A stretch of DNA of 64,000 nt from Candidatus Omnitrophota bacterium. Lineage in GTDB: Bacteria; Omnitrophota; Gorgyraeia; Duberdicusellales; 4484-171. The translations under genes were made by a program, and so were the position numbers. Below, one piece after another: positions 1-19,012 of this stretch; within the stretch, counting starts at the first letter, position 1, and the number at the start of each line of letters is the position of its first letter. Where the stretch lies: contig JAMXCX010000001.1 in assembly GCA_024542985.1 (NCBI GenBank), positions 3,137-67,136 of the forward strand. The letters run 5' to 3'. Below the pieces are notes generated by a model. It worked only from the letters and a program-made list of their open reading frames with translations. It searched no databases and was not told where the DNA came from.

Positions 1-703
1 TAGTTAAAGATGGTGGTAAATATTGGCCCAGAGTCAAAAAATCACACTCTGTCTTCCTTAAATCTCTCAAAACCCCGATAACTTCATTATCGTTTTCACC
101 TAAGCCCAACATAAGGCCTGATTTAGTAAAAATTTGCTTATTCATACCTTTGAGCAGCTTTAAAATTCCTAGAGACCTCTGATAACTGGCTCCTTTTCTT
201 ATCTGAAGATATAAAGAAGGAGTAGTTTCTAAATTATGAGAAACTACTTGGGCCCCGCAATAAGCTATTCTTTTTATTAATTCGGCTTTTCCCAAAAAAT
301 CCGGTATCAATAATTCTATAGTTATTTTAGAATTCAGGCTTTTTATCGCTTTGATTGTCCGGCAGAAAATTTCAGCCCCGCAATCGAAGAGATCGTCTCT
401 GGTAGGTGAAGTTATTACTACATAGCTTAAGCCTAACTCTTTAACAGCTCTTTTTACCCTCCCGGGCTCATCAAAGTCAGGCTTAAAAGGCTCGCCTTTC
501 TTTATACCGCAAAAATTACAACCTCGGGTACAAATGTCACCTAAAATAATAAATGTCACCACACCACAAGAAAAACATTCAGAGATATTCGGACATAAAG
601 CTTCTTCGCATACAGTATGCAGACGATAACGCCTTAGAGTGTTCTTTAGATTATGGCAAGCACTAAGTTTTACTCTCTTATTTAACCATGCGGGTTTAAT
701 CAT
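1..703 (-). CDS. lipA: lipoyl synthase, partial (C-terminus runs off window start)
   Basis: Manual reverse-complement translation from ATG at 701-703: MIKPAWLNKRVKLSACHNLKNTLRRYRLHTVCEEALCPNISECFSCGVVTFIILGDICTRGCNFCGI... shows both LipA cysteine clusters (CEEAxCPNxxEC and radical-SAM CTRGCNFC); not in ORF track because truncated. Confidence 0.85.
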   Translation of the reverse strand, partial: MIKPAWLNKRVKLSACHNLKNTLRRYRLHTVCEEALCPNISECFSCGVVTFIILGDICTRGCNFCGIKKGEPFKPDFDEPGRVKRAVKELGLSYVVITSPTRDDLFDCGAEIFCRTIKAIKSLNSKITIELLIPDFLGKAELIKRIAYCGAQVVSHNLETTPSLYLQIRKGASYQRSLGILKLLKGMNKQIFTKSGLMLGLGENDNEVIGVLRDLRKTECDFLTLGQYLPPSLT

Positions 704-753
704 AGAGAAAGTTACTATAAAATATTTTTACTTCGGATAAACTTATTTTAAAC

Positions 754-1083
754 TTAATCATATTCATGGGTGACAAAGGCGTTAAGTTCTCCTGTAGCTG
801 TTAGATTAACCACAACTTGCATATGATCATGCTGAACCCAGCCAGCGTCGTTATCATTTCTTTGGCGTAATCCAAAACCTGTTTGTAGTGAGGCTCCGCC
901 GGGAATTAAATCTCCGGTTCTAGCATTAAGGTCGGCATACTCAAGTCCAGTATAATAAGCTACTTGTTGGGCCCGGCGCATGAAATCTTGGTCTACTAAA
1001 AGGGCAAAATTGGGGCTAAAACTTATAAAGGCAGTAAGAAGAATCGAAACCAACATTATACTTGAAATAATTATAACTATCAT
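754..1083 (-). CDS. small membrane-anchored hypothetical protein, last gene of pilin-like cluster
   Basis: N-terminal hydrophobic helix (IVIIISSIMLVSILLTAFISF); start overlaps stop of upstream gene in ATGA (1080-1083), indicating translational coupling. Confidence 0.45.
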   Translation of the reverse strand: MIVIIISSIMLVSILLTAFISFSPNFALLVDQDFMRRAQQVAYYTGLEYADLNARTGDLIPGGASLQTGFGLRQRNDNDAGWVQHDHMQVVVNLTATGELNAFVTHEYD

Positions 1084-1736
1084 AACCTTATTTCCATATA
1101 TTTAAAAAGAATCCCTTCCATAGTTTCATAAACTTCACCGTTGGGGACTGTTCCGGTAGTATTTACAGCTGCGGTAATAAAATTCGGATCATCACCTTCA
1201 CTATACATAAACTCTGCTTCCACCGGCCTAACATTACCGGTTTCATTAACACCCGGGTCTACTAAAGTCTCATATAAATTATAAACGCCCGGTGCATTAA
1301 AAGTTCCGCCTGTAGACCTTAGCAAAACTAAAGAACCTACTGCAGCATTAGATACACAATTGACTAAATCCGCTACGCAGTATCTATACCATACTTTAGT
1401 TCCTCCGGCAGAAGTCATGGTATGATTCCGGTCATCTATAATGTAAGGGTCATCCTCACCCACAAATGCGAGATTGTCTCTAACCCATTCTCTGTTGGGA
1501 AAAGACCCCCGAAAAGGATCACCTTCCCGAAAAGGTTGATCTATATTTACTGCTCCTAGGCAGCGAAGTTTTATATCCTCTAGGGCATAATTTACCTGAC
1601 TATACATATTGTAACGGTCGGCATTCAGGCGGACACCGTTTAAAAAAAACACAACAAAAGAAGTCGTTGCCAAAAGTATAAATGCAGAAATTACAAGTAC
1701 AATAATAATCTCGATTAAAGTAAATGATTTTTTCAT
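1080..1736 (-). CDS. prepilin-type N-terminal cleavage/methylation domain protein (pseudopilin/minor pilin-like)
   Basis: MKKS-FTLIEIIIVLVISAFILL: class III signal-peptide consensus FTLIE with Glu+5 and hydrophobic helix; Ser rather than Gly at -1. Confidence 0.7.
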   Translation of the reverse strand: MKKSFTLIEIIIVLVISAFILLATTSFVVFFLNGVRLNADRYNMYSQVNYALEDIKLRCLGAVNIDQPFREGDPFRGSFPNREWVRDNLAFVGEDDPYIIDDRNHTMTSAGGTKVWYRYCVADLVNCVSNAAVGSLVLLRSTGGTFNAPGVYNLYETLVDPGVNETGNVRPVEAEFMYSEGDDPNFITAAVNTTGTVPNGEVYETMEGILFKYMEIRL

Positions 1737-1753
1737 CTTAAAAAATACTTTTT

Positions 1754-2665
1754 TTAATTAACTGGCTCTGAAGCCTGTATAATTAAATTAGCTCTCCTGA
1801 CGCGAATATCTCCAAAACCGCCCACAGACCTATTGCTCCATTCAACTCCGATTAGATATGTCTGTCCGGCTCTCATTATATTTGCAACATTAAGCCTTCC
1901 GTTAATTGAAACCTGACTCATAATCGGAGTTTCTGCAATTATAGGATACCAGGTCCAGGTATTTCTGGGAGGACGGCCGCCAGTCACATCTACAATAAAA
2001 ACCCGACTCCGAAGAGCATCTGTAACCACTAAACCAACACCACTAACAATATCAAGAGCAATATTATAGGTTATTATTACATCCTTATCCGTCAAATATC
2101 TGACTTCTTCCGCTAAAGCCCAGGGTTGAGCACCCGGGGGTAGGCTACATCTGATATCATTAACACATTCGTAAATGCCGAAAGGAGCTCGATCTCCCTG
2201 CTGGCTAATTTCAACTGAATCTATATGCAAGGAGGGGTAAGGAACAAAACCTGTAAGCCTTACTTGTTTTCTAACCGGATCACGCATTAATGTATCTTCG
2301 TCATACTCAACATTAACCTCTACTTCCTGATAGGGTATTTGTCTTGTTACGGGAGGCCCGGCACTATCTACGCTCATATTTCTTTGAGTAATTATTACAT
2401 CCCATTCTAGGAGTTTGCCATGGCTAACTGTTCTACTATCAGGATGATTTCCCTGATCAGCGTCTAAGCTACCGTAAGATAATGCTGTCCAGCGATCCAG
2501 CTCTAAGTGGGCTCGATTCATAGCTGCTGCTTTATTTTGGGCCTGCTTTAGCATAACTTTTCCGGTAACAATCACGCCGCTTAAAAAAACTACACCAATG
2601 CCGACTATAACTGAAGCAACAATTACCTCAATTAAGGTAAAGGAATTTTTTTCCTTAATTTGCAT
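1754..2665 (-). CDS. prepilin-type N-terminal cleavage/methylation domain protein (303 aa, minor pilin-like)
   Basis: MQIKEKNS-FTLIEVIVASVIVGIGVVFL; Glu+5; Ser at -1. Confidence 0.7.
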   Translation of the reverse strand: MQIKEKNSFTLIEVIVASVIVGIGVVFLSGVIVTGKVMLKQAQNKAAAMNRAHLELDRWTALSYGSLDADQGNHPDSRTVSHGKLLEWDVIITQRNMSVDSAGPPVTRQIPYQEVEVNVEYDEDTLMRDPVRKQVRLTGFVPYPSLHIDSVEISQQGDRAPFGIYECVNDIRCSLPPGAQPWALAEEVRYLTDKDVIITYNIALDIVSGVGLVVTDALRSRVFIVDVTGGRPPRNTWTWYPIIAETPIMSQVSINGRLNVANIMRAGQTYLIGVEWSNRSVGGFGDIRVRRANLIIQASEPVN

Positions 2666-2684
2666 ATACCCGTTTTTATCTTAT

Positions 2685-3428
2685 CTAATTCTGAACCGGC
2701 ATAACCGTAATAATCAGGTTACGGGCAGTATTGCCGCCTTCATCCAGAGGGCTGATTATAATCAAAGATGTATTATTTAACCACTCGATTCTAAAATCCA
2801 TTCTATTAGGAAATTCGCCCCCGAAATCTTCCGGCCTAAGATAAGCACTGCCGGTTATAGTGGGGTCACTGGGAGTGTAGACTCCTATTCCGCCTTGAAA
2901 AGGAATAGTCATAACCGCTTCGTTGCCTCTTGGCTGGCCATTAACTAATAAACGGGTAAAAACTTTCCCGCCCTTAAATTCTTCATAAGCATAGCCGCTC
3001 CATCTACCGCCTATACCCAAGGCCTGACATACGGTTGCTATAGGCAAAAATTCAGCTTTACCTACCACGCGAATTGTCCAGGTCACAAAAATACCTGTAT
3101 ATTTTTGATACTCTCTGCCTATTCCTCCTTGGCCTCTGAAATTAACGGTTGTCTCTAATATCGGCTCAAACTCAAAAGGAGCACCCAATCTACTTTGTGT
3201 TATGGGTTTTCCGCCAACCATCAAACAAGCCTCTGCACATGCCTTGGCTGAAGAAGGATATCTTGAAAAGGTAAACTCAGGGTAGACTGTTAAGCCATAG
3301 CTCACCTCTCCTTGGCCTATTTCTTGTATTACTACCGGAGCCAGAGAAGGCCTTGTGTCGGCTGCAGCCGGAGAAACAGAAACAGCAGCTAAAAAAATAA
3401 TGCTTAGAATAAAATACATAAATTTCAT
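2685..3428 (-). CDS. secreted protein, paralog A of tandem pair (unknown family)
   Basis: Start reassigned to ATG at 3426-3428 (MKFMYFILSIIFLAAVSVSPAAA = Sec signal peptide) preceded by AGGAGGG Shine-Dalgarno; ~55% identical to 3755-4525 product with an identical 24-aa block MTIPFQGGIGVYTPSDPTITGSAY. Confidence 0.6.
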   Translation of the reverse strand: MKFMYFILSIIFLAAVSVSPAAADTRPSLAPVVIQEIGQGEVSYGLTVYPEFTFSRYPSSAKACAEACLMVGGKPITQSRLGAPFEFEPILETTVNFRGQGGIGREYQKYTGIFVTWTIRVVGKAEFLPIATVCQALGIGGRWSGYAYEEFKGGKVFTRLLVNGQPRGNEAVMTIPFQGGIGVYTPSDPTITGSAYLRPEDFGGEFPNRMDFRIEWLNNTSLIIISPLDEGGNTARNLIITVMPVQN

Positions 3429-3754
3429 TTTTTCCCTCCTTTTTTTAACCTTTAAATTTATTTGTAAAACAACTGTCATAACTGCTCTTACTAAAAAATT
3501 ATCCTCCTCCTTCATCTTTACTATAAACTAAGGATTTTTCCTTAGCCATAGTTATGAACAGGTATAGCAGTGGTAATAGCTTACCAAAGTATGAGCCTTA
3601 TCAGTTTAAACTAAGCTAATACGATTAAAATGCTTAACCTAACTATGTACAATAATATTATATCATTAAAAGGTGCAGTTCCTTAAAAAAACAGAACTAC
3701 CCTCTTGCTGAAACCAAGCTATTAATAGCAAACCTTTTTACTTAAGCCGGCCTA

Positions 3755-4525
3755 TTACTGAACCGGCATAATCGTAATAATCAGGTTCCGGCTAGTATTG
3801 CCGGTAATGCCACCTGGACCGTCCAGGGGACTGGTTATGGTCAAAGATGTATGGTTCAGCCAGGAGACTTCAAAATTCATTGTATTCGGAAACCTACCTC
3901 CCGGAAAATCTTTCGCCCTGATATAAGCGCTTCCGGTAATAGTAGGGTCACTGGGAGTATAGACCCCTATTCCGCCTTGAAAAGGAATAGTCATAATAGC
4001 AAGATTACCTTGTTGCGTACCATTAACAGTAAGCCGAGTTTCAACTTCCCCGCCTATAAATTCCTCATACACATAGCCATGCCAGTTACCAGCACCTAAT
4101 ACCTGGCATACACCCTTACGATCACCTGTCCATAAAGGCATAAACTCAGCACTACCGATTACACGTATGGTCCAAGTAATAAACATAGCTGTATTTTCTC
4201 GATACTCTGTTCCTATACCATTGACGCCAGTAAAATTAACAGTTGTGCTCAGTATCGGCTCGTAACTAAAAGGAGCACCAAAAACTGCTGCCTCAATGGG
4301 TTGACCTTCTACTGCATTACACTTATCTACACAGCGCTGTTCACCGCCAGAGTACCTGGAAAACCTATCAAAGAAAGGATAAACGGTCTTAGAATAAGTT
4401 ACTACTCCTGCTCCCATTTCCTGTATTACTAACGGGGGCAAAGAAGGTCTGGTAGCTGCTGTAGCGGTAAAAGTAAAAGATACCACCAGCAAAAGAACAC
4501 TTAAGCCAATTACAATACTTTTCAT
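3755..4525 (-). CDS. secreted protein, paralog B of tandem pair (unknown family)
   Basis: MKSIVIGLSVLLLVVSFTFTATAAT signal peptide; GGGAGG Shine-Dalgarno upstream; CxxxC+C pattern and conserved C-terminus NLIITIMPVQ shared with paralog A. Confidence 0.65.
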   Translation of the reverse strand: MKSIVIGLSVLLLVVSFTFTATAATRPSLPPLVIQEMGAGVVTYSKTVYPFFDRFSRYSGGEQRCVDKCNAVEGQPIEAAVFGAPFSYEPILSTTVNFTGVNGIGTEYRENTAMFITWTIRVIGSAEFMPLWTGDRKGVCQVLGAGNWHGYVYEEFIGGEVETRLTVNGTQQGNLAIMTIPFQGGIGVYTPSDPTITGSAYIRAKDFPGGRFPNTMNFEVSWLNHTSLTITSPLDGPGGITGNTSRNLIITIMPVQ

Positions 4526-4578
4526 TATCCACCTCCCTTATACGTTTAAACAAATTAATTAATCTCTCTAATCTATAT

Positions 4579-6438
4579 TTACTCCCTCGTCCTGGTCACA
4601 TAAAAATGCATGTTCAGCACTTTCATGGTTAAGGTGACATTCGGAACACTAGGGATAAAATATTCTAACCGCATACGATAAGTTTTTCCCGGAGTTAATT
4701 CTCCGGCATCGATATTGGTGCCGGCAAAAATAGTAAAAGCATTGGTAAAATCCTTTTGATGAAGCATACTGGAATGTTCCTGTATAACTTCTTCTTCACC
4801 GGCAGCGTTAAATCCATAAAGCATAGCCCGTGTGAAAAAATAAGCTTGATTAGCCCCAATAAGCGGTATGTCGGGATTCTCTGAATTAACCTCCCAAAAA
4901 ATCGCAAAGGATTCCCCGCTCTTAGGCACAAATTCATAAAAAAAGTCTCCATCAATTTCGCTATAGCAAGCAGTGCAATCCCATTCAGTCGGCTCACCGG
5001 CAAGGCATGCCTCAGCCATTATTAGCAGCTGGCCGCAAAAGCCTGAATCTAAAGAGTGTGTAGCACATGTTGCATCGTCGCCACTAACAGCATTTTTACC
5101 TAAGCCTATTTCTCCGCAACAATAATGCTCTGGTTCAGGCAATTGAAAATCAGGTAAAGTTCCGATTTCATCATCCCAATCCAATACGCCCTTAAGGTCT
5201 GGATCTGACCTTTCATCGCATGACCTAGGGCTACAGTTCTCTTGGAAACTGAAACCTGTTCCGCTGCATTCCTGGGGAGTTCCATCAGGCCATGTATCAG
5301 GACAACATATATTAGCCTCACAACAACTAACTTCTTTTAAACACCTTTCTAAATCTTGGGTATAAGTTATGCACTCACCAGTATAATCCCTAAAATCGTC
5401 ATCCGGCACATATTGATAGCAAGTTGGGATCGGATCCGGCGGGTCCGGCGGGTCTGGATCCGGGTCCGGGTCTCCGCCACCGACATTATCGCAATCAAAC
5501 CAACCATCAGCAACTTTATCATCAATATCCTTTAGCTTAACGCACTTTTTATCACTGTCTTTAACAAGACAATGCTTATTGGGTTTATTGCAAGGACTAT
5601 CCGTACAGGCAAAACAGGCTGGGTCACCGGCAGGTATCATTAAAAGGCCGGCTAGCTTTTTATCTGTATTTAGAGAACTCTGCTGTTGAGGAGGGATAAA
5701 ATCTGCCGGACAACTATCACCGGTAAGAACATCAGTAGGGTCTTTGTAATAATCATCTGAGGTGCTGGCTACATCCTTAAAAAATCTTTCCCTATAGTAC
5801 CCACTCAATGTAGGACTGCCATCCGGCCTACATCCGCTAAAAACAGGAAAAATATCGGGATCAGTACAATGCCATTCACCTGTTATAGGAGGAAACCTCT
5901 CACACCTTGCATCATCATTATCACTGGTGCCTGGATTAGGGTCAGTATTAGGACAACCTCTTGGTTGAGCCCCGTCAATAGGCCCAAGTGGTGTTTGGGT
6001 AGGAGGTACAGCATTAGTATCACCGTCAAGATAACTGCAGTCATTAAATTCAGTCCAGTCACCAGGCTGCATGTCAGTCTCACTACAAGTAAAAGGCGTA
6101 CGCTCACAACCATACCTGGCATTATGGTCTGCGGTGCATTTATACTTCTTTTCATATCTACTAGCAGGGTCTTCTACCAAGCAACAATCCGGGCATTGCC
6201 CTTGCGTTGTCAAAGTTATACATCTTGAGCACTGAGCACTCATATCAAGAAGATGTTGAACATCACAAGGGACAGTACCTAGGATGACATCGCCAACTGC
6301 AACCCAAGATATCTCATCACTGCTTTCATCACGCGCAATCCGGGCAATACTTGCAGTCCTTCTGGCATAAACAAATTGGGTGATAATTGTAAAAAATAAA
6401 AGTACTAGGATTATCCTAAACCATAGTAATTTCTTCAT
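4579..6438 (-). CDS. large cysteine-rich secreted protein with (DP)n linker; putative pilus-associated adhesin
   Basis: Start placed at MKKLLWFRIILVLLFF (ATG 6436-6438, GGGGGGAAGG Shine-Dalgarno upstream). About 50 Cys in recurring C..C/CC patterns; GGGDPDPDPDPPDPPDPIP linker; Cys-free C-terminal ~150 aa domain. Sits between pilin gene and secreted paralogs. Confidence 0.65.
   Translation of the reverse strand: MKKLLWFRIILVLLFFTIITQFVYARRTASIARIARDESSDEISWVAVGDVILGTVPCDVQHLLDMSAQCSRCITLTTQGQCPDCCLVEDPASRYEKKYKCTADHNARYGCERTPFTCSETDMQPGDWTEFNDCSYLDGDTNAVPPTQTPLGPIDGAQPRGCPNTDPNPGTSDNDDARCERFPPITGEWHCTDPDIFPVFSGCRPDGSPTLSGYYRERFFKDVASTSDDYYKDPTDVLTGDSCPADFIPPQQQSSLNTDKKLAGLLMIPAGDPACFACTDSPCNKPNKHCLVKDSDKKCVKLKDIDDKVADGWFDCDNVGGGDPDPDPDPPDPPDPIPTCYQYVPDDDFRDYTGECITYTQDLERCLKEVSCCEANICCPDTWPDGTPQECSGTGFSFQENCSPRSCDERSDPDLKGVLDWDDEIGTLPDFQLPEPEHYCCGEIGLGKNAVSGDDATCATHSLDSGFCGQLLIMAEACLAGEPTEWDCTACYSEIDGDFFYEFVPKSGESFAIFWEVNSENPDIPLIGANQAYFFTRAMLYGFNAAGEEEVIQEHSSMLHQKDFTNAFTIFAGTNIDAGELTPGKTYRMRLEYFIPSVPNVTLTMKVLNMHFYVTRTRE
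5433..5474 (-). repeat. imperfect in-frame hexanucleotide repeat (GGRTCY x7) encoding the (DP)n linker of the Cys-rich protein
   Basis: ggatccggcgggtccggcgggtctggatccgggtccgggtct on plus strand; encodes DPDPDPDPPDPPDP on minus. Confidence 0.5.
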
Positions 6439-6469
6439 AATAATACCTTCCCCCCTCAATGTTAGCCTT

Positions 6470-6892
6470 TTACCAAAAATCACAAGTTTGGCCTATCCTA
6501 CCTCTAATTTCAGTTACAAACATCTGCTCATTAGCACAAAGACCTTCATCGTGCCGGGTAGCAGTTGCATTAAACCCTCCAGTTACGCTCGCTGTAATAG
6601 TATAATCAAAAAACTTGTCATCAATATTAATGCCTAAGTTCAGCTTAATCGATTGCTTACTGCATGGATCACAGATATAATATACACCCATATTATCCAG
6701 CTTGTGCCTCTTTTGGGCATTATAAATACTAACCAATGTTAAACTGGCGATTTTACCCTTACTCCTTTCAATAGAACCCTGATAAGAAGGCACTGCGAAG
6801 GATAGTACAATACCCATAATTACCAGCACCACCATTATCTCTAATAGAGAAAAGGTTTGCCTTTTTATTGTATTTATGGCTTTTTTTTTCAC
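6470..6892 (-). CDS. type IV pilin-like protein (140 aa)
   Basis: GTG start with GAGGGAGG Shine-Dalgarno. MKKKAINTIKRQT-FSLLEIMVVLVIMGIVLSF: class III signal peptide with Glu+5; two Cys near C-terminus (D-region-like); Thr at -1. Confidence 0.7.
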   Translation of the reverse strand: MKKKAINTIKRQTFSLLEIMVVLVIMGIVLSFAVPSYQGSIERSKGKIASLTLVSIYNAQKRHKLDNMGVYYICDPCSKQSIKLNLGINIDDKFFDYTITASVTGGFNATATRHDEGLCANEQMFVTEIRGRIGQTCDFW

Positions 6893-6904
6893 GCGCCTCC
6901 CTCA

Positions 6905-6945
6905 TTAATTTATACCATATTTATATATATTATTCAATTTCCCGG
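6905..6945 (-). promoter_or_regulatory. sigma70-like promoter for pilin cluster
   Basis: On minus strand TTGAAT - 17 nt - TATAAA upstream of the pilin GTG start; AT-rich surroundings. Confidence 0.35.
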
Positions 6946-6977
6946 TATCCGGATAATTATAGAAAATAAAAGCGTTT

Positions 6978-7802
6978 TCAGTTTTTTCTCCCAGCATTCC
7001 AGCTTTCCAGGCTGTATTTATCCGCGAGCAGGCGGTTAACTTGCTTTCTTTCTGCAAAATCAATACCTTTGGCTTTAATCTTGAGCCCAAAACTAAGCTT
7101 AAAGCTTCTTGCCAGTAAAGAACGTAAATAGCTAAATTTAGTTTTCTCACCCAGAACCTTATCTAAACAAGTAGTTTTTTGCTTTAGATCCTCGGTTTGC
7201 TTTATAGATTCCCGTATCATTTTAAAATTTAACCTTTGAGGTATACTGCCCTGCTGGAAAATAATATTTCTCTTCCTCCTTTGAGCATTACCGCCTATTT
7301 TTTTATCCTTTATCAGCAAATCAAAATGCTGATAACTTAAAAAGCAAAAGTTGCTGTATAGGCCTAAGGTTTTTTGAGTTAATTTTAAGCTCTTATTTTT
7401 AGAATAACTCCCCTTTATTTTATCACCGGCAAAATGAGCCTCTAAGCCCAAACAGGAATAGAAACGCTTAAGCCAAGAACAAATTATTCGGTAAGAATCT
7501 TTAACTGATTTGGGTAGACTTAAGTCTTCTAAAGAACAAACTAAACTGTAGGTAATTTCCTGGTCATGAAGGATAGCTGAACCTCCGGTGCTTCTTCTTA
7601 CAAAGGGAAGGGTATTTTTGCTGGTTAAAACATCCTGGGGTTTTTGGTTATAACCCAGAGAAATAAACGGCTGAGCCCAGCCATATATTCTTAAGGTGGG
7701 GGTGTTGTTCTGATAATAGTTTAAATGCAAGGCCTCATCAAGGGCCATATTATAATAGCCTTCGCCTTTTTTATCTAAAATCAGTCTCCAGACTTTTCCC
7801 AT
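6978..7802 (-). CDS. lipoate-protein ligase family protein (LipM/LplA-like octanoyltransferase, BPL/LPL catalytic domain)
   Basis: YYNMALDEALHLNY...IYGWAQPFISLGYNQ...RRSTGGSAILHDQEITYSL matches LplA/LipM catalytic motifs; 274 aa (LipM-size); last gene of gcv operon. Confidence 0.75.
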   Translation of the reverse strand: MGKVWRLILDKKGEGYYNMALDEALHLNYYQNNTPTLRIYGWAQPFISLGYNQKPQDVLTSKNTLPFVRRSTGGSAILHDQEITYSLVCSLEDLSLPKSVKDSYRIICSWLKRFYSCLGLEAHFAGDKIKGSYSKNKSLKLTQKTLGLYSNFCFLSYQHFDLLIKDKKIGGNAQRRKRNIIFQQGSIPQRLNFKMIRESIKQTEDLKQKTTCLDKVLGEKTKFSYLRSLLARSFKLSFGLKIKAKGIDFAERKQVNRLLADKYSLESWNAGRKN

Positions 7803-9232
7803 TTTAAGTTAGGGAATCTTGCTGCTTTGACCTCATCAATTCTTTTTACTGAAACCGAGTGAGGTGCAGTTTTGACTTTGGCTAAATCCTGGTCTATCTC
7901 CTTATCTATATCTCTCATGGCTTTAATGAAATAATCCAAAGCCTGCTTGCTTTCAGTTTCTGTAGGTTCTATCATTAAAGCTTCAGCAACAATTAAGGGA
8001 AAATACATTGTCGGGGGATGGATACCAAAGTCAATTAACCTCTTGGCAATATCCAGGCTTGAAGCTCCCCGCTCTTTTTGCTTTTGACAGCTGAACACAA
8101 CTTCATGTAGACACCTTTTAGGGTAAGCTACCTCATATTGATTCTTTAACTTTTCCTTTATATAATTAGCATTTAAAGTCGACACCTGGGCTACCCTTAA
8201 CAAGCCTTGTTCTCCTAAGCGCAAGATATAGGCATAAGCTCTTACCAAGACAAGAAAATTGCCGTAAAATCCTTTTAAGCGGCCGATAGAATTTTTCACC
8301 TGGTAATTCAGGTAAAATTTGTCTCCCCTTTTATCTATCAAGGGAAAGGGCAAAAAATCCTCTAAGGTATCTCCTGCTCCTACTGCGCCGGCACCCGGGC
8401 CGCCGCAGCCGTGAGGTGTAGAAAAAGTCTTATGCAGATTTAAGTGGATAACATCAAACCCCATCAAAGAAGGATTAGTAACGCCTAGCAGAGGGTTGAA
8501 ATTAGCTCCGTCATAATAAAGCAAACCACCTTTTTTATGAACAATATCTCTTATCTCTAGAATATTCTCCTCAAATAACCCTAAAGTATTGGGGTTGGTA
8601 AGCATTATTGCTGCTACTTTATCGTCGACAATCTCTTTCAATCTGTTAATATTTACCAAACCGTCCTTAGTGCTTTCAACTGTCAATACTTGATAACCGC
8701 ACATACTGGCTGTAGCCGGATTAGTTCCGTGAGCGGAATCCGGAATAATAACTTTAGTTTTTTGATTGTTGTTTATCCGGTGAAATTTGCGAATCATCAG
8801 GAGCCCGGCTAACTCACCTTGGGCCCCGCTTGAAGGCTGAAAAGTAAACCTCTTCATCCCGGTAATTACACTTAAGGCTTGGGATAAATTATAAATAAGC
8901 TCTAAAGCACCTTGAATACAATCTGCGTTCTGGTAAGGATGGATATCAGTAAATCCGGCTAGAGAAGCTAAATACTCGTTAAGTTTAGGATTATATTTCA
9001 TAGTGCAGGAGCCTAAGGGGTAAAAATTGCTATCAACAGAAAAATTTGAACTGCTTAAACTAGTATAATGCCGAATTACTTCCAACTCCCCCAGGTTAGG
9101 TAAAGGTAGGTTCTCTCTTAGACAACTTTTAGGAATAACTTTATCCAGCTCAGCTAAAGGAGTATCCGGCTGGTTTATGTAATTAGTATTTTTTGAATTG
9201 CTGTTTTTGTCAAATATTTGTAGTTTCTCCAT
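7781..9232 (-). CDS. gcvPB: glycine dehydrogenase (aminomethyl-transferring) subunit 2
   Basis: PLP-dependent P-protein C-terminal half; start moved to MEKLQIF (ATG 9230-9232) to limit overlap with gcvPA; conserved operon position. Confidence 0.9.
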   Translation of the reverse strand: MEKLQIFDKNSNSKNTNYINQPDTPLAELDKVIPKSCLRENLPLPNLGELEVIRHYTSLSSSNFSVDSNFYPLGSCTMKYNPKLNEYLASLAGFTDIHPYQNADCIQGALELIYNLSQALSVITGMKRFTFQPSSGAQGELAGLLMIRKFHRINNNQKTKVIIPDSAHGTNPATASMCGYQVLTVESTKDGLVNINRLKEIVDDKVAAIMLTNPNTLGLFEENILEIRDIVHKKGGLLYYDGANFNPLLGVTNPSLMGFDVIHLNLHKTFSTPHGCGGPGAGAVGAGDTLEDFLPFPLIDKRGDKFYLNYQVKNSIGRLKGFYGNFLVLVRAYAYILRLGEQGLLRVAQVSTLNANYIKEKLKNQYEVAYPKRCLHEVVFSCQKQKERGASSLDIAKRLIDFGIHPPTMYFPLIVAEALMIEPTETESKQALDYFIKAMRDIDKEIDQDLAKVKTAPHSVSVKRIDEVKAARFPNLKWEKSGD

Positions 9233-10571
9233 GCAACACCTCAGCCAAAGTTTCAATAAAATTGTCAATATCTGCTTTAGTCTTCTTTTCAGTGCAACAG
9301 CTTAAAATAGCATTTTTATGTTTAGGAAATATCCTACCTACAAAATAGCCGGCAATAATATTCTTTTCATAAAGTTTCGCTATAACTGCGGCCGCATCCT
9401 GCACTTCCCAGATAAATTCATTAAATATTTGCTTAGAGTAAGGAATCTTTATACCCCTAATTTCTTTTAGGCGCTGGTAAAGATACTGTGTATTCTGAAA
9501 AGAGCTCAAAGCCACATTTTTCATTCCCTGTTGGCCCATCAACGAAAGATACACAGCTGCCCCGATTGCGTTTAAGGAGTGGTTGGAACAAATATTACTG
9601 GTAGCTTTTTCTCTTCTTATGTGCTGCTCCCGGGTTTGTAAAGTAAGGCAATAAGCCGGTTTAGTTTCTTTATCGGTAGTTTTTCCCACAATTCTTCCCG
9701 GAATTTGTCTTGTGTACTTCTTCCTAGCTGCCAAAAACCCCAATGACGGCCCGCCAAAACTTAAACTCCCCCCCAAAGGCTGGCCATCTCCGCAAACAAT
9801 ATCTACTCCTAATTCAGCCGGTTCTTTGAGAATAGCTAATGACATAGGGTTAGTCACCATAATCGTTATGGCGCCGTAACTAGCTACCGTATTAGATACC
9901 CGCTCTACATTTTCAACCAGTCCGAAAAAATTAGGGCTCTGCAAACAGCAACAAACAACATCATCATCTAAGTATCTCTCTAGAACATCTTTTTCTAAAA
10001 TGCCCTTATCCGCAACTTTTACCTGCTGGATAGTAAAATCAAAACCGCTTAAATAAGTATTTAAAGTCTCTTTGTATTCGGGATGCAAATATTCAGCGAC
10101 AAGAACCTTTTTTCTTTTAGTCATTCTTAAGGCCATAAGTACTGCTTCGGCTAAACTGGATGCACCGTCAAACATAGAGGCGTTAGAAACATCCATGCCT
10201 GTTAAAAGACAGATGTAACTTTGATACTCATAGATGGCCTGTAATATTCCTTGCGAACATTCAGCCTGATAGGGAGTGTAGGCAGTAAGAAACTGCGGCT
10301 GAGAGAGCATGTAGGGCAAAGCCGCCGGTATATAATGGTCGTAACAGCCTGCGCCTAAGAAAGAATTATATTTATCAAGAGTAATGTTTTTAGCTGCCAG
10401 TTCCTCTATTCTTTTCTTGACATCAAATTCGCTGCCACCCCTTGCTAAATCTAAAGGTTTTTTTAATCTTAACGAGGAAGGAATTTGAGCATATAACTCC
10501 TCCAGAGAACTCAAACCTACAACTTTAAGCATTTCTTCGATATCTTGGAGAGTATGGGGAATATAAGGCAT
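9210..10571 (-). CDS. gcvPA: glycine dehydrogenase (aminomethyl-transferring) subunit 1
   Basis: 453 aa; P-protein N-terminal half; between gcvH and gcvPB. Confidence 0.9.
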   Translation of the reverse strand: MPYIPHTLQDIEEMLKVVGLSSLEELYAQIPSSLRLKKPLDLARGGSEFDVKKRIEELAAKNITLDKYNSFLGAGCYDHYIPAALPYMLSQPQFLTAYTPYQAECSQGILQAIYEYQSYICLLTGMDVSNASMFDGASSLAEAVLMALRMTKRKKVLVAEYLHPEYKETLNTYLSGFDFTIQQVKVADKGILEKDVLERYLDDDVVCCCLQSPNFFGLVENVERVSNTVASYGAITIMVTNPMSLAILKEPAELGVDIVCGDGQPLGGSLSFGGPSLGFLAARKKYTRQIPGRIVGKTTDKETKPAYCLTLQTREQHIRREKATSNICSNHSLNAIGAAVYLSLMGQQGMKNVALSSFQNTQYLYQRLKEIRGIKIPYSKQIFNEFIWEVQDAAAVIAKLYEKNIIAGYFVGRIFPKHKNAILSCCTEKKTKADIDNFIETLAEVLHGETTNI

Positions 10572-10985: not shown

Positions 10986-12107
10986 TCACACCTCTTTTTT
11001 TGACTTTGTGTTTATTTTAACAAAAGGATATTTAGCTATCTTTGCCTTATAAAACTTTTTTCTTATCTGAATTTCAATTGTTTTCCCGGTGGCTGCGTAT
11101 TCGGATAATACGTAGGCCATACCGATAAATTTATTCAAGTTCGGAGAAAATGTTCCGCTGCAAACTTCTCCTATTTTATTTCTTCCCAGATACAACCCAT
11201 AACCCTGACGGGCAAGAGCCTTCTCATCCATTATAAAACCGACTCTTATTTTCTTTAAGCCTTTATTTTTTATTCCTACAATTTCCTCCTTAGCAATAAA
11301 GTCTTTATTTGATTTTACTGCCCAACCTAAAGAAGCTTCATAGGGATTAGTCTCCTCATTAATCTCATGCCCATATAAAGGGTATCCGGCTTCTATTCTT
11401 AAAATGTCTCTTGAGCCTAGACCGCAGGAAATAAGGCCAAAGCCTTCCCCTTCCTGGATAAGCCTATCCCAAAAATACGGGGCATCTTTTGACTCAATAT
11501 ATATTTCAAACCCATCTTCACCGGTATAGCCGCTGCGGGATATAAGAACCTGCCGATGGTCAATTTCTTTTTTAGTAAAAAACATATAATCTAAGCTGGC
11601 AATCTTTTCGCCAAAAACCCTGGCTATTACTCTAGATGAGCTCGGCCCTTGAATAGAAATAAGGGCTGTTTCTTCACTTTTATCGATGAGCTCAACGCCC
11701 TGTTCCTTATTGTCTCTTAGCCAAGAAACCACTTTATCTTTATTGGAAGAATTTACAACACATAATAAGCTCTCATCGCAATAATAACACATAAAATCAT
11801 CAATAATACCCCCGGAGGTATTCAAAAAAAGATTATACTGCATCTGGCCCGGAGCTATCAAGGAAATATCGTTAGGAGTGAGTTTTTGCAGGAATTTGAA
11901 AGCTCCCTTCCCTTTTATTTCTATTTCACCCATGTGAGAGGCATCAAACAAACCGCAATTTAGGCGCACCTGTTTTGCCTCTTTGAGCATACTGCCATAA
12001 TCTAGAGGCAAGGCCCATCCTGCAAAATCAATTATCCGGCCTTTATTTTGAAGGTGTTTTTGGTAAAGCGGAGTTTTTCTTGATTCCATATTCCTATTTT
12101 TAGTCAA
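10986..12107 (-). CDS. gcvT: glycine cleavage system aminomethyltransferase T
   Basis: 373 aa; first gene of gcvT-H-PA-PB operon. Confidence 0.9.
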   Translation of the reverse strand: MTKNRNMESRKTPLYQKHLQNKGRIIDFAGWALPLDYGSMLKEAKQVRLNCGLFDASHMGEIEIKGKGAFKFLQKLTPNDISLIAPGQMQYNLFLNTSGGIIDDFMCYYCDESLLCVVNSSNKDKVVSWLRDNKEQGVELIDKSEETALISIQGPSSSRVIARVFGEKIASLDYMFFTKKEIDHRQVLISRSGYTGEDGFEIYIESKDAPYFWDRLIQEGEGFGLISCGLGSRDILRIEAGYPLYGHEINEETNPYEASLGWAVKSNKDFIAKEEIVGIKNKGLKKIRVGFIMDEKALARQGYGLYLGRNKIGEVCSGTFSPNLNKFIGMAYVLSEYAATGKTIEIQIRKKFYKAKIAKYPFVKINTKSKKEV

Positions 12108-16137: not shown

Positions 16138-17168
16138 CCTAATAGCCCGCCTGTTTCCTTTACATAAATCTCTGTATTTTTAATAATTTTATTCATCATA
16201 TCAACAACCTTAGCCGGATGTCTTCCTATGGCAGTTTCTGCGGATAAAAGTAGATGCGTTGCTCCGTCTAAAATCGCATTAGCCACATCACTGACTTCGG
16301 CCCTGGTAGGTGAAGGGCGCTCAATCATACTATCAAGCATCTGGGTAGCCACAACAACCGGTTTTTGTTTTATACGGCACATTTTAACAATTTCTTTTTG
16401 AATTACCGGAACCTTATAAATAGGTACACAAATCCCTAAGTCACCCCGGGCAACAATGATGCCATCACAAGAATCAATAATCTCCTCAAGATTTTTAAGA
16501 GCATCTCTGCTTTCAATTTTAGCGATTATCTTACATCCGGGATGTCTGGGTTTAATTAATTCTTTAAGCAGCCGTAAATCCTCGGCGCTGTTAACAAAAG
16601 ACTGGGCGATATAATCTAATTTTTCACCTATGCCAATATTTAAATCTTTTTTATCCTTTTCAGTCAAAGCCTCAAATTCTAACTTTGCTTGGGGTATATT
16701 TATGCCTTTGTGGCTTTGTAATAAACCCGGGGTAATAATCTTTAGTTTTATATGCTTTTTGCCAACTGATTTTACCTCTAAGACTATCCTCCCGTCATCA
16801 ACGTAAATCAAAAATCCCGGTTTTATTCTTTTTAGTGAGCCGAGATAATCAAAAGAGACTTCCCGCTCGCTGCCGACTATATCCTGCTGGGTAAAATAAA
16901 TATAACGGCTTTTTTTTAACTGCAAGGGTTCATTTAACCTGCCGACCCTTATGCGATACCCTTCTAAATCCTGCATTATCTTTATCGAGCGCCTCATCTT
17001 CGCATTAAGAGCCCGAATAAGTGAGATTTTTTCTAAATGTTCTTTAGAGGTGCCGTGAGAAAAATTAAGACGGACACAATCGAGCCCGCTAGTTATCATT
17101 TTGCGCAGGATAGCCTCATTGCTGCTTGAAGGGCCTAAGGTAGCGATAATTTTTGTTACGGGTATCAT
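16134..17168 (-). CDS. pyk: pyruvate kinase, short form lacking C-terminal domain
   Basis: KIIATLGP...NFSHG...KIIAKIES...VARGDLG...ATQMLDSMI PK signatures; protein ends right after the A-domain (344 aa). Confidence 0.8.
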   Translation of the reverse strand: MIPVTKIIATLGPSSSNEAILRKMITSGLDCVRLNFSHGTSKEHLEKISLIRALNAKMRRSIKIMQDLEGYRIRVGRLNEPLQLKKSRYIYFTQQDIVGSEREVSFDYLGSLKRIKPGFLIYVDDGRIVLEVKSVGKKHIKLKIITPGLLQSHKGINIPQAKLEFEALTEKDKKDLNIGIGEKLDYIAQSFVNSAEDLRLLKELIKPRHPGCKIIAKIESRDALKNLEEIIDSCDGIIVARGDLGICVPIYKVPVIQKEIVKMCRIKQKPVVVATQMLDSMIERPSPTRAEVSDVANAILDGATHLLLSAETAIGRHPAKVVDMMNKIIKNTEIYVKETGGLLG

Positions 17169-19012
17169 ATCTCTCTTTTTCGGGTCGAAGATAAAACCAG
17201 CATCCTTAATGATTCTTTATCCTTCATATCCATCCAGTGTTTATAGAAATTATGCTCGCGCACTATCTGGGCAATTGCCATTAAAACCCGCAAGTGAAAA
17301 TTTCTTACATCTTGAGAGCCAACCAGCACAAATGCAATATGTACCGGCTCTTCGTTAAGCGAAAAGGGTATACCGGGCCGTGACCTTGCTAAAATCATCT
17401 CAAACTTATTGGCTCCCGGCACAACGATATGCGGAATAGCCAGGCCTTTTTCAATAACCGTGTGTGATTCTTGCTCTCGTTTTAACAACAGATTTTTTAT
17501 TTGGGCCGCATCTATGTTAATTCGCTCAGATAAAACTTCACTAACCTGAGTAAAAAACTCATCCCTGCTCATTGGCTCCTCTATGTCCAACACCGGACAA
17601 TTCTCAATCAAATGGTCAAACCTGTCCTTTACTATATTATCCCGTTTATGAAGAATATCTTTTAATTCTTTCTCTAAAGAAGTATCAACAAACTCTTTAG
17701 CCGTAATTCTCTCTACTAAATGCATAAGGGCCGATTGTCTTTTTATCTTACGGGCTGAGAATAAAAACCAAACAAAGCTGACCATTGCAAAACAGCTACT
17801 TATAATAAGCGAGACCTTACCCATTTTAAAGATTAAAAAACTATAACTGATTAAGGCGAAAATCTGCAGCCAGGGATAAAAAGGCGTGCGAAATGTAGGC
17901 CGGTAATTTATTATCTTGCTTTCGCGCATTATAATAACCGAAAGGTTAACAAACATAAAAAGGATAATCATAAGGGTCGAAGCAATCTTTACTAAATCTT
18001 TAAGGTCTAAAAAAAGAATCAAAAGAAACATAAACAATCCTGTGACAATTACAGATAAAAAAGGAGTATTAAACTTCTTTGATAAAGAAGAAAACTTAGA
18101 AGGGAGTAAGCCATCTTTGGCCATAGCAAAAGGTATCCGCGAAGACGCGAATATACCGGCATTGGCAGTGCTAATAAAAGCGATAGCGGCCGCTAATGAT
18201 AACACTACAGCAAAGCTAACCCCTCCTAGCTTGAAAGCGCCGTGAGTCAAAGGTGTAAAGGTTGATACAAGTTCATGAGACGGTAAAATTCCAACTGTAA
18301 CTGCTATGCATAAACAATACAATACTTGCACGACAAAAAAAGCCAAAAACATACCCGTGGGAATAGTCTTGGAAGGATGCTTTGTATCTTCAGCAATAGA
18401 TGCCACTTTAGTGAGCCCCCCGTAGGAAATGAATACCAGGCCAACTACGGAAAGAAATGCTCCTTTACCTTGAGGCAAGAAAGGCTTAAAATTCTGCCAG
18501 GAAATATTCCTTACACCTAGAAAAACGTAGGTTGCGCATACCAAGAGTAGAAAAACAACCATCAGGTTCTGGATACGAGCGCTTAATTTAACGCTAAAAA
18601 TATTTATGATTACGAAAAGGACACAAAAAGAAGCAGCAACAAGTTTTACCTGAAAATAATCAAAAGAAGGCGAAAAATACTCTAAAAATAACCCTATACC
18701 CACCAAAGCAAAAGCACTTTTTAAAGCCAGCGAAAACCAGCTAGCCAAACCGCTAAATATCCCCAAAAACGGCCCAAAACTTCTCTCAATAAAAAAATAG
18801 GTCCCTCCGGCCTTAGGCATGGCAGTAATTAACTCTGATTTGCTTAAAATTGAAGGAATCATCAACAATCCGGCAAGAAAATAAGCTACAACTATAGAAG
18901 GCCCAGTTTGCCTATAAGCAATAGCCGGAAGTATGAATAACCCCGATGAAATCATAGTCCCGGTTGCCATACAGAAAATATCCCATAAACCAAGCTTTTC
19001 TTGAACTTTCAT
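17165..19012 (-). CDS. APC-family amino acid/polyamine permease fused to C-terminal PTS EIIA type-2 (EIIA-Ntr-like) domain
   Basis: ~440 aa with multiple TM helices (APC fold), then cytoplasmic domain ...KREQESHTVIEKGLAIPHIVVPG...PVHIAFVLVGSQD...HLRVLMAIAQIV matching PtsN/EIIA-2 with active-site His. Confidence 0.75.
   Translation of the reverse strand: MKVQEKLGLWDIFCMATGTMISSGLFILPAIAYRQTGPSIVVAYFLAGLLMIPSILSKSELITAMPKAGGTYFFIERSFGPFLGIFSGLASWFSLALKSAFALVGIGLFLEYFSPSFDYFQVKLVAASFCVLFVIINIFSVKLSARIQNLMVVFLLLVCATYVFLGVRNISWQNFKPFLPQGKGAFLSVVGLVFISYGGLTKVASIAEDTKHPSKTIPTGMFLAFFVVQVLYCLCIAVTVGILPSHELVSTFTPLTHGAFKLGGVSFAVVLSLAAAIAFISTANAGIFASSRIPFAMAKDGLLPSKFSSLSKKFNTPFLSVIVTGLFMFLLILFLDLKDLVKIASTLMIILFMFVNLSVIIMRESKIINYRPTFRTPFYPWLQIFALISYSFLIFKMGKVSLIISSCFAMVSFVWFLFSARKIKRQSALMHLVERITAKEFVDTSLEKELKDILHKRDNIVKDRFDHLIENCPVLDIEEPMSRDEFFTQVSEVLSERINIDAAQIKNLLLKREQESHTVIEKGLAIPHIVVPGANKFEMILARSRPGIPFSLNEEPVHIAFVLVGSQDVRNFHLRVLMAIAQIVREHNFYKHWMDMKDKESLRMLVLSSTRKREI

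Follow-up and report, generated by a model that had tools for sequence, protein, structure and literature searches.

This locus raises two questions: what does a block of genes for pilins and secreted proteins do among the housekeeping genes of an Omnitrophota genome, and how did its present alleles come to be there? The block lies within 64,000 nucleotides of Candidatus Omnitrophota DNA (contig JAMXCX010000001.1; this whole stretch is referred to as the window), where seven co-directional minus-strand genes occupy positions 754-6892 between a gene for an LplA/LipM-like transferase and lipA. They encode four pilin-like proteins of 140, 303, 218 and 109 amino acids (aa), a Cys-rich secreted protein of 619 aa, and two paralogous secreted proteins of 256 and 247 aa (paralogs A and B), with open reading frames (ORFs) and coordinates as an earlier note on this DNA had described them. 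That note saw the closest likeness in the minor-pilin/PilY1-type tip operons, and we concur, as the block combines pilins with secreted proteins and lacks assembly machinery. Our favored reading, held with slightly better than even confidence, is that the block is a module encoding the tip or priming complex of a type IV filament, with a variable receptor-binding head and with the machinery encoded elsewhere.

The module recurs at other loci of Omnitrophota type. Genomic context was retrieved for eight members of the family to which paralogs A and B belong (E-values 1e-105 to 5e-7; the TNF-like family, for reasons given below), and nine distinct loci were examined (the window, L002, L003, L010/11, L012, L013-15, L016/17, L018/19 and L020). 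Six gene families were found in nearly one order in all nine: a pilin of ~130-150 aa, a Cys-rich protein of 430-620 aa, a TNF-like protein of ~250 aa, pilins of 273-317 and 182-218 aa, and a pilin-like protein of 109-132 aa. The order is fixed except in L010, which has the TNF-like gene ahead of the Cys-rich one. These loci represent five neighborhoods: YfiH/gcv...lipA (window and L002); RmuC-DUF167-YfiH, the module and then an excisionase-like helix-turn-helix (HTH) gene (L010/L011); RlmN/GDSL...beta-lactamase/RND efflux (L013-15); greA...Na/Ca exchanger (L016/17); and DAHP synthase/MJ1433-like...BatD/RecG (L018-20). Homologs of the secreted proteins were never found outside pilin neighborhoods; all nine loci carry the module. 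No gene for an assembly ATPase, platform protein, secretin or peptidase lies within 10 kb of the module at any of them, and the absence of PilB/GspE, PilC/GspF, secretin and prepilin peptidase genes from the window, noted before, held over the full 64 kb. Searches of open-access literature found no description of this module in Omnitrophota, nor of a C1q/TNF-fold protein or of the Cys-rich family in a pilin operon. Two of the loci have a neighbor of interest. In L010 (5450-5575) an excisionase/AlpA-like HTH ORF (MSKKKRLPRLLSVEELADYLGLKKQTIYNWL...) lies directly downstream of the module and hints at a mobile element beside it in that lineage. In L018 (2938-3879), ~4 kb upstream of the module, a protein joining MshEN and PilZ is encoded. 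MshEN is the N-terminal domain of MshE-type pilus ATPases that binds cyclic di-GMP, and the protein is a possible candidate for a cyclic di-GMP receptor tied to pilus control.

The pilin character of the module is carried by three of its proteins. Against the Pfam N_methyl (PF07963) gathering score of 21.2 bits, the 140-, 303- and 218-aa proteins scored 26.0, 23.2 and 22.0 bits, which bears out their earlier designation as prepilin-type, and all three have the phenylalanine at +1 and the glutamate at +5 of a class III signal peptide. The 303-aa protein matched PilV (TIGR02523) at 8e-4, with its N-terminus only and at 19.9 bits relative to a cutoff of 52.2; an XpsI match at 0.027 was present among the minor-pilin library matches, again for the N-terminal helix only. 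Orthologs of the 303-aa protein (273-317 aa) and of the 218-aa protein (182-207 aa) are present in all modules, and for both families Pfam gave nothing beyond N_methyl and the PDB profile matches covered alpha-1 helices only. The 109-aa protein, set down earlier as a small membrane protein, proved to be conserved as part of the module and to have a pilin-like helix. This hydrophobic helix starts right at the N-terminus, with neither a leader nor E5; its orthologs (109-132 aa) come last in every complete module and share invariant M1, I2, P24, D33, A42 and R55. No family match was obtained for it in Pfam, NCBIfam or PDB profile searches. From the leaderless, E5-less pattern we propose that it is a capping subunit of the PilX/GspK/ComGG type.

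The 140-aa pilin and its orthologs (~130-150 aa) hold the first position in all complete loci. In L016 (6905-8373) a tandem of three pilin genes (150, 133 and 145 aa) heads the module, compared to one elsewhere; the pilin position at the module head is expandable. The 140-aa pilin scored 25.5 bits for ComP_DUS (PF16732), slightly under the cutoff, and its orthologs in L010, L011 and L016 reached E <= 1e-5, at or above threshold. Its best NCBIfam match was GspG (TIGR01710, 3.7e-10), confined to the N-terminal helix and at 40 bits relative to an equivalog cutoff of 88.85. The family profile matched M. xanthus PilA (5e-15, N-terminal), GspG 5wda (3e-11) and Thermus PilA4 (8e-9, full length). On these matches, the family appears to resemble major and PilE-type pilins.

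Such resemblance lends itself to two other readings. The first is a self-contained second filament, where the 140-aa pilin would be the major pilin of a pilus of its own, built on a shared machine, and the module would specify the entire fiber. The wide and narrow pili of Thermus are distinct fibers from a shared machine. The full-length likeness to PilA4 and the N-terminal likeness to PilA speak for this, as do the triplet of L016 and the fact that the 140-aa pilin is always the first, and best-translated, module gene; the ComP_DUS and PilE-type matches would suit a low-abundance linker pilin equally. This reading differs from that of a tip complex solely in which pilin forms the shaft, and we keep it as a tentative possibility. 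The second is a competence (DNA-uptake) pilus, in which the ComP_DUS-like pilin would bind DNA and a nanobacterium of reduced genome would scavenge nucleotides or DNA. The PF16732 matches are what suggests it, yet that of the window pilin is the one below gathering threshold, and PF16732 also captures many PilE-like pilins that do not bind DNA. Furthermore, comEA, comEC and dprA are not near the module at any locus, and known DNA-uptake pili make no use of a hypervariable lectin-type head or a Cys-rich protein. We consider a competence pilus very improbable.

Paralogs A and B are 59% identical as proteins (E 2e-101), in line with their earlier description as paralogous, and both begin with Sec signal peptides, read from sequence (TATA↓ATRPS in the 256-aa protein and PAAA↓DTRPS in the 247-aa protein; the arrow marks the cleavage site). 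The AlphaFold2 model of paralog A, based on an 8-sequence alignment, had a predicted local distance difference test score (pLDDT) of 72 and a predicted template modeling score of 0.68. The model showed structural likenesses to BclA, ectodysplasin, many TNF/C1q ligands, and phage needle and tail-fiber tips. A Foldseek search of this product, a check suggested in the earlier note, against the PDB and viral models returned TNF/C1q-like neighbors, namely Pgp3, adiponectin, the N-terminal lectin of Bc2L-C and collagen-like/C1q phage fiber proteins; lectins and fiber-tip heads are the best of the structural neighbors. With moderate confidence, the paralogs are predicted to adopt a ten-strand jelly-roll beta-sandwich of the TNF/C1q type. 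This is a fold assignment only, because support at the sequence level is absent: none of 60 family members matched a Pfam family, C1q (PF00386) and TNF (PF00229) included, and a 60-sequence profile found no match among PDB sequences. C1q, TNF and phage tail fibers use this jelly-roll fold to bind targets, and proteins of the fold are typically trimeric, distal ligand-binding heads. By analogy, the TNF/C1q-like proteins of the module are probably trimeric, and the two paralogs could form homo- or heterotrimers.

The TNF-like family is sizable. A word-indexed search gave nine relatives; an exhaustive profile search of 1.84 billion cluster representatives gave 140 proteins at E <= 1e-3, 125 of them at E <= 1e-10, nearly all of 220-300 aa. 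Members with a named source come from Candidatus Omnitrophota metagenome-assembled genomes (MAGs), one further member being from a MAG labeled Elusimicrobia and falling in the same 90%-identity cluster as Omnitrophota entries. A 2015-aa protein of Pistacia integerrima (P0143) was matched by profile positions 86-127 in six stretches (E 1e-6), probably a spurious, repeat-driven match. A phage origin of the family was considered and dropped, as no relative was found in IMG/VR viral contigs, and a JGI metagenome scan with the family gave no confirmed locus. Paralog B has its best match in the position-2 paralog of L003 (68%), a counterpart of which is missing from L002, and the single L002 copy pairs best with the position-1 copy of L003 (68%); this pairing places the duplication before the alleles. 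A gap of 237-252 nt follows the position-1 paralog in L002 and L003 as well. The 326-nt gap of the window was evaluated as a structured RNA or terminator and rejected (fold z-score of -1.05, no better than shuffles; weak conservation; no Rfam match). An independent assembly of the same sample (ENA ZHAO22-1 scaffold_572, L001) stops inside paralog A (window 3890-4525). The paralog genes, 68% identical, probably break short-read assemblies, and the module may therefore be under-recovered in MAGs.

The second kind of passenger is the 619-aa protein, with a Sec signal peptide read from sequence (FVYA↓RRTAS), 38 cysteines, a conserved CPDCCL motif, a conserved C-terminal domain of ~130 aa and a lineage-specific insertion of ~75 residues with a (DP)n linker. 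Its homologs were taken from synteny; word-indexed searches, with the single sequence and with a 3-sequence profile, returned the query protein only, and these and the PDB sequence searches detected no relatives outside the module. The syntenic homologs (430-544 aa) are 28-43% identical, with the Cys positions and the C-terminus conserved. The protein terminates in R-x-R-E (window 4579-4593) after a hydrophobic, beta-strand-like stretch, and this terminus is kept in L002 (4184-5818), L010 (1784-3379), L013 (8653-9945), L016 (8383-9963) and L012 (2-694), L018 (RGQ) being the exception; it could be a docking or sorting motif. The C-terminal domain was tried as a second TNF-like domain, and hhalign found no relation. 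The earlier statement that the three secreted proteins match no family recognizable from sequence holds for the 619-aa protein and its homologs and for the paralogs as far as sequence matches in Pfam, NCBIfam and the PDB go, but the TNF/C1q-like fold of the paralogs qualifies it.

Secreted passengers beside a GspG-like pilin could also belong to a type II secretion system (T2SS). The module would then encode a pseudopilus, with the 140-aa protein as GspG and the other three as I/J/K-like subunits, and the passengers would be periplasmic substrates that leave through a secretin as free lectins or effectors. Consistent with this are the GspG matches of the 140-aa pilin and of its family profile, the Sec signal peptides on both kinds of passenger, and the structural neighbor Pgp3, a secreted soluble trimer of Chlamydia, which belongs to the same PVC superphylum; GspF-type genes have been reported in Omnitrophota (bioRxiv 10.64898/2026.06.07.730766). 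However, the GspG match falls well short of its equivalog cutoff and is restricted to the helix, Gsp core genes are absent within 10 kb at all nine loci, genes for T2SS pseudopilins usually lie within gsp operons, and the pilin-like genes number four rather than five. We regard a T2SS pseudopilus as unlikely.

The second question, the history of the locus, was addressed by comparison with L002, the only close relative compared; this 9.95-kb contig comes from another sample, and its genes are ordered as in the window. The flanking proteins are highly similar (GcvPA 95%, GcvPB 96%, LplA 89% and LipA 87% identity), in contrast to the pilin-like proteins (140-aa 65%, 303-aa 51%, 218-aa 62%, 109-aa 53%) and the secreted ones (Cys-rich 45%, TNF-like paralogs 52-53%). 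By the Nei-Gojobori method, the synonymous divergence (dS) is 0.15-0.29 and the nonsynonymous divergence (dN) 0.02-0.07 in the flanks, compared to a dS of 0.7-2.6 and a dN of 0.24-0.52 in the module, a 5-15-fold difference in dS. In a 100-nt sliding comparison, identity holds at 92-95% across lplA and the intergenic/promoter region and continues so for ~130 nt into the pilin gene, where the conserved N-terminal helix is encoded. It drops sharply to 40-60% at ~6760 and returns to ~90% at ~600, ~100 nt into lipA. Faster protein evolution or positive selection alone was rejected as an explanation, since dS is likewise elevated 5-15-fold over the flanks. The contrast in dS, along with the abrupt breakpoints within the pilin gene and within lipA, indicates that the module alleles were replaced by homologous recombination anchored in conserved sequence. 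Cassette replacement of this kind is known for pilin and O-antigen loci. As judged from dS, the two cassettes appear to be much older than the divergence of the two genomes, and a history of the locus that differs from that of its flanks is strongly supported. Separately, the gcvPA/gcvPB junction (9159-9258) is the sole indel-rich spot, with 36 gap columns in flanks otherwise 92-99% identical to L002, and the called gcvPB start differs between the two genomes.

These data also bear on the accessory insertion between lipA and lipM/gcv that the earlier note saw in the module, considered here as a recently acquired island. In favor of an island, the module is slightly richer in GC (0.40-0.47) than the sequence directly beside it (0.35-0.39), dS and breakpoints give the module a history unlike that of the flanks, functionally linked lipoylation genes are split by it, and other lineages carry it in other neighborhoods. 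On the other hand, L002 holds the module at the identical site and offers no empty site, so that lipA and lipM/gcv are not found adjacent in the only close relative recovered. In the distant relative L011 (YfiH 45% identical), RmuC-DUF167-YfiH stands directly upstream of the module and the gcv-lplA genes are absent. There is no integrase in the window, the nearest tRNAs are ~49 kb from the module, and no flanking direct or att-like repeats were found at its borders. The breakpoints lie inside module and lipA genes, which fits homologous allele exchange and not site-specific insertion, and the module was present in every locus sampled. A scan for empty sites in GTDB species representatives with the LplA-like protein gave only an irrelevant Halanaerobium match (23% identity); in a JGI scan with LplA, L007 (60% identity) ends inside lplA and L008 and L009 are distant and high in GC, making them uninformative about the site. 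We give the recent island very little credence. Because L002 has the same site and L011 keeps RmuC-DUF167-YfiH beside the module, the module appears from the synteny to be a long-time resident of this neighborhood, and the gcv-lplA block is what differs, if anything.

As a tip complex, the module might operate as follows. The four pilin-like proteins would insert in the inner membrane via their N-terminal helices, the three with F+1/E+5 would be trimmed by a prepilin peptidase encoded elsewhere, and the set would nucleate a filament on a type IVa pilus (T4aP) or T2SS-like machine, whose genes would also lie elsewhere in the genome. The Sec-exported Cys-rich and TNF/C1q-like proteins would join the pilin complex in the periplasm and ride out on the filament tip to serve as a receptor-binding head for attachment to host cells or surfaces, the TNF/C1q-like protein being the putative ligand-binding head. 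Because the head would be the specificity determinant, exchange of the whole cassette between strains by homologous recombination, anchored in the conserved pilin N-terminal coding region and in lipA, would change specificity, and selection for host specificity may drive the exchange. Nearly every class of Omnitrophota is reported to have T4aP machinery genes (PMC10066038). For a tip complex whose genes lie apart from those of the machine, there are precedents in the PilY1/minor-pilin clusters of M. xanthus (PMC7541494) and of Pseudomonas, and the interchangeable Kil "Tips" of Myxococcus are a further one (PMC12075869).

Several points weigh against this reading. The window prepilins carry T, S and S at -1 (RQT↓F, KNS↓F and KKS↓F) in place of the near-invariant G, and with these residues the predicted processing by a prepilin peptidase is uncertain. 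The orthologous pilins have G at -1 in L010, L016, L018 and L020, including some 303-aa orthologs, and A or S in the others, with canonical sites such as KG↓FTLIE, KG↓FSLVE and RG↓FSFMEIL. By alignment, the families look canonical at -1 overall and it is the copies in the window genome that deviate; the T/S at this position may point to a peptidase of relaxed specificity in the lineage. The three larger pilin-like proteins could not be assigned by sequence to PilV/W/X or GspI/J/K. No PilY1/PilC-type C-terminal beta-propeller was matched on the 619-aa protein in Pfam, NCBIfam or PDB sequences, and its single-sequence AlphaFold2 model was unusable (pLDDT 36). The TNF-like call comes from one model of moderate confidence with no support from sequence, and the case for allele replacement from one close-relative contig, L002.

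The uncultured Omnitrophota are abundant, ultra-small nanobacteria with a presumed predatory or parasitic lifestyle. A more specific proposal, to which we assign well under an even chance, is an Omnitrophota-specific pilus-tip complex for receptor binding, in which a C1q/TNF-like trimer and a disulfide-rich partner sit on three or four minor pilins and are swapped among near-identical strains to change host or prey. If true, this would be a cellular counterpart of phage tail-fiber swapping, the host range of an uncultured phylum would be readable at one locus, and a C1q/TNF-fold protein would be a new type of non-pilin passenger in type IV filament biology. Published genomics lists T4aP and Tad machinery for Omnitrophota and no specificity determinants (PMC10066038). 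The module is easily recognized and its secreted parts are hypervariable among strains, which makes it a concrete candidate for a host-recognition device. It provides a marker locus for strain typing and inference of host range, and the TNF/C1q-like head and its Cys-rich partner are defined proteins for pull-downs against candidate hosts.

The features of the locus are collected in Table 1. Both flanks are as called before, lipA on one side and, on the other, an LplA/B catalytic domain followed by gcvPB-PA-H-T. The overlap in ATGA at 1080-1083 is real; the tight spacing attributed to the genes is broken by the 326-nt gap between the paralogs. Strong Shine-Dalgarno sites, credited to most genes, were seen at four of the seven starts and are weak for 1754-2665, 1080-1736 and 754-1083. 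The promoter-like TTGAAT-17-TATAAA is present, within the stretch 92-95% identical to L002, but it fails the criterion of the promoter scanner and is indistinguishable from chance (19 promoter-like sites found, 18.4 expected in shuffles). Neither the junction of lplA with the first pilin gene (6893-6977) nor the 50-nt gap from the end of the module to lipA (703-754) showed a terminator. The pilus module may share a transcript with the lipoylation genes, in which case lipA expression could depend on read-through from the cassette. An Rfam scan of window positions 1-8000 gave zero matches.

Table 1. Features of the module and its flanks in the window
Feature	Position	Strand	Remarks
gcvT	10986-12107	minus	followed by gcvH, gcvPA, gcvPB and the LplA/LipM-like gene in transcription order
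LplA/LipM-like lipoate/octanoyl transferase	6978-7802	minus	PF21948 7e-30; end of gcvT-H-PA-PB operon; upstream flank
Promoter-like TTGAAT-17-TATAAA	6937-6909	minus	5' of first pilin gene; then Shine-Dalgarno GAGGGAGG
140-aa type IV pilin (PilE/ComP/GspG-like)	6470-6892	minus	GTG start; leader ends KRQT↓FSLLE; 4 Cys
619-aa Sec-secreted Cys-rich protein	4579-6438	minus	ATG start; mechanical ORF reaches GTG at 6483
256-aa Sec-secreted protein, predicted TNF/C1q-like jelly-roll, paralog A	3755-4525	minus	
Intergenic gap between paralogs, 326 nt	3429-3754	minus	weak hairpin and U-run after paralog A
247-aa predicted TNF/C1q-like paralog B	2685-3428	minus	length counted from ATG preceded by Shine-Dalgarno
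303-aa minor-pilin-like protein	1754-2665	minus	KNS↓FTLIE; large novel globular domain
218-aa minor-pilin-like protein	1080-1736	minus	KKS↓FTLIE
109-aa leaderless pilin-like protein	754-1083	minus	start overlaps preceding stop (ATGA, 1080-1083)
lipA (lipoyl synthase)	1-703	minus	NF004019 3e-91; cut by window edge; downstream flank
Codons around prepilin cleavage sites	6850-6860, 2635-2645, 1720-1730		
Hypervariable (apparently allele-replaced) tract relative to L002	600-6760		nucleotide identity and dS contrast

NCBI entries NG737_00045/50/55, which belong to an "Omnitrophica bacterium" MAG, match the window proteins exactly. The other genes of the 64 kb are all housekeeping ones, including those for riboflavin, histidine and aromatic amino-acid synthesis, an AddAB-like helicase/nuclease, recA and alaS, as well as lepA, rpsB-tsf-pyrH-frr and lpxB. 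A 615-aa ORF at 17165-19012 fuses an AA_permease to a C-terminal phosphotransferase system (PTS) EIIA-2 domain, and standalone genes for EIIA-2, HPr and Enzyme I are found at 51.5-55.3 kb, with no EIIB/EIIC seen in the window. This combination suggests a regulatory PTS.

The module can be compared with several known systems. With the T4aP minor-pilin/PilY1 operons (fimU-pilVWXY1Y2E of P. aeruginosa; clusters 1-3 of M. xanthus, PMC7541494) it shares co-directional pilin-like genes with a large Sec-exported non-pilin, a location away from pilBCD/MNOPQ (here, none in the window), a PilE-like pilin of ~140 aa, and a last member that is leaderless or lacks E5. In contrast to these operons, it has no PilY1/PilC beta-propeller, and a Cys-rich protein of 430-620 aa with a novel C-terminal domain and one or two TNF/C1q-like proteins are present instead; its pilin-like genes number four rather than five or six, and sequence comparison detects no likeness between their globular domains and PilV/W/X. 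Alleles of the pilin/minor-pilin groups of P. aeruginosa are divergent between strains, as they are in the Omnitrophota module. With the T2SS pseudopilins GspG-K, the likeness consists of a GspG-like N-terminal helix and of one ~140-aa subunit with larger accessory pseudopilins, whereas the module scores under the equivalog cutoffs, lies outside a gsp operon and differs in member count and sizes.

The TNF/C1q-like trimeric heads used for comparison were those of Bacillus BclA, the F-ENA tip fibrillum, the Bdellovibrio Bd2734 fiber tip, the N-terminal lectin of Burkholderia Bc2L-C, the Photorhabdus TNF-like lectin, Chlamydia Pgp3 and phage tail-fiber tips. Unlike these, the module protein is encoded within a pilin operon and shares no sequence similarity with them; it is a free-standing mature chain of ~230 aa with a small N-terminal CxxxC subdomain and no collagen-like or coiled-coil stalk. 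The Kil (Tad) "Tip" complexes of Myxococcus (PMC12075869) are alike in being minor-pilin sets with variable domains at the pilus end, encoded as separate modules; they recognize different prey and are tied to a predatory lifestyle. The Kil system is of the Tad/Flp type, whereas the module pilins are T4a/GspG-like. Several Tips coexist in one Myxococcus genome, compared to one locus with alternative alleles in different strains here, and no TNF/C1q-like passenger has been described for them. The minor-pilin/tip-adhesin operon is already a known type, and what is new here are the passengers and the apparent lineage-specific swapping of alleles.

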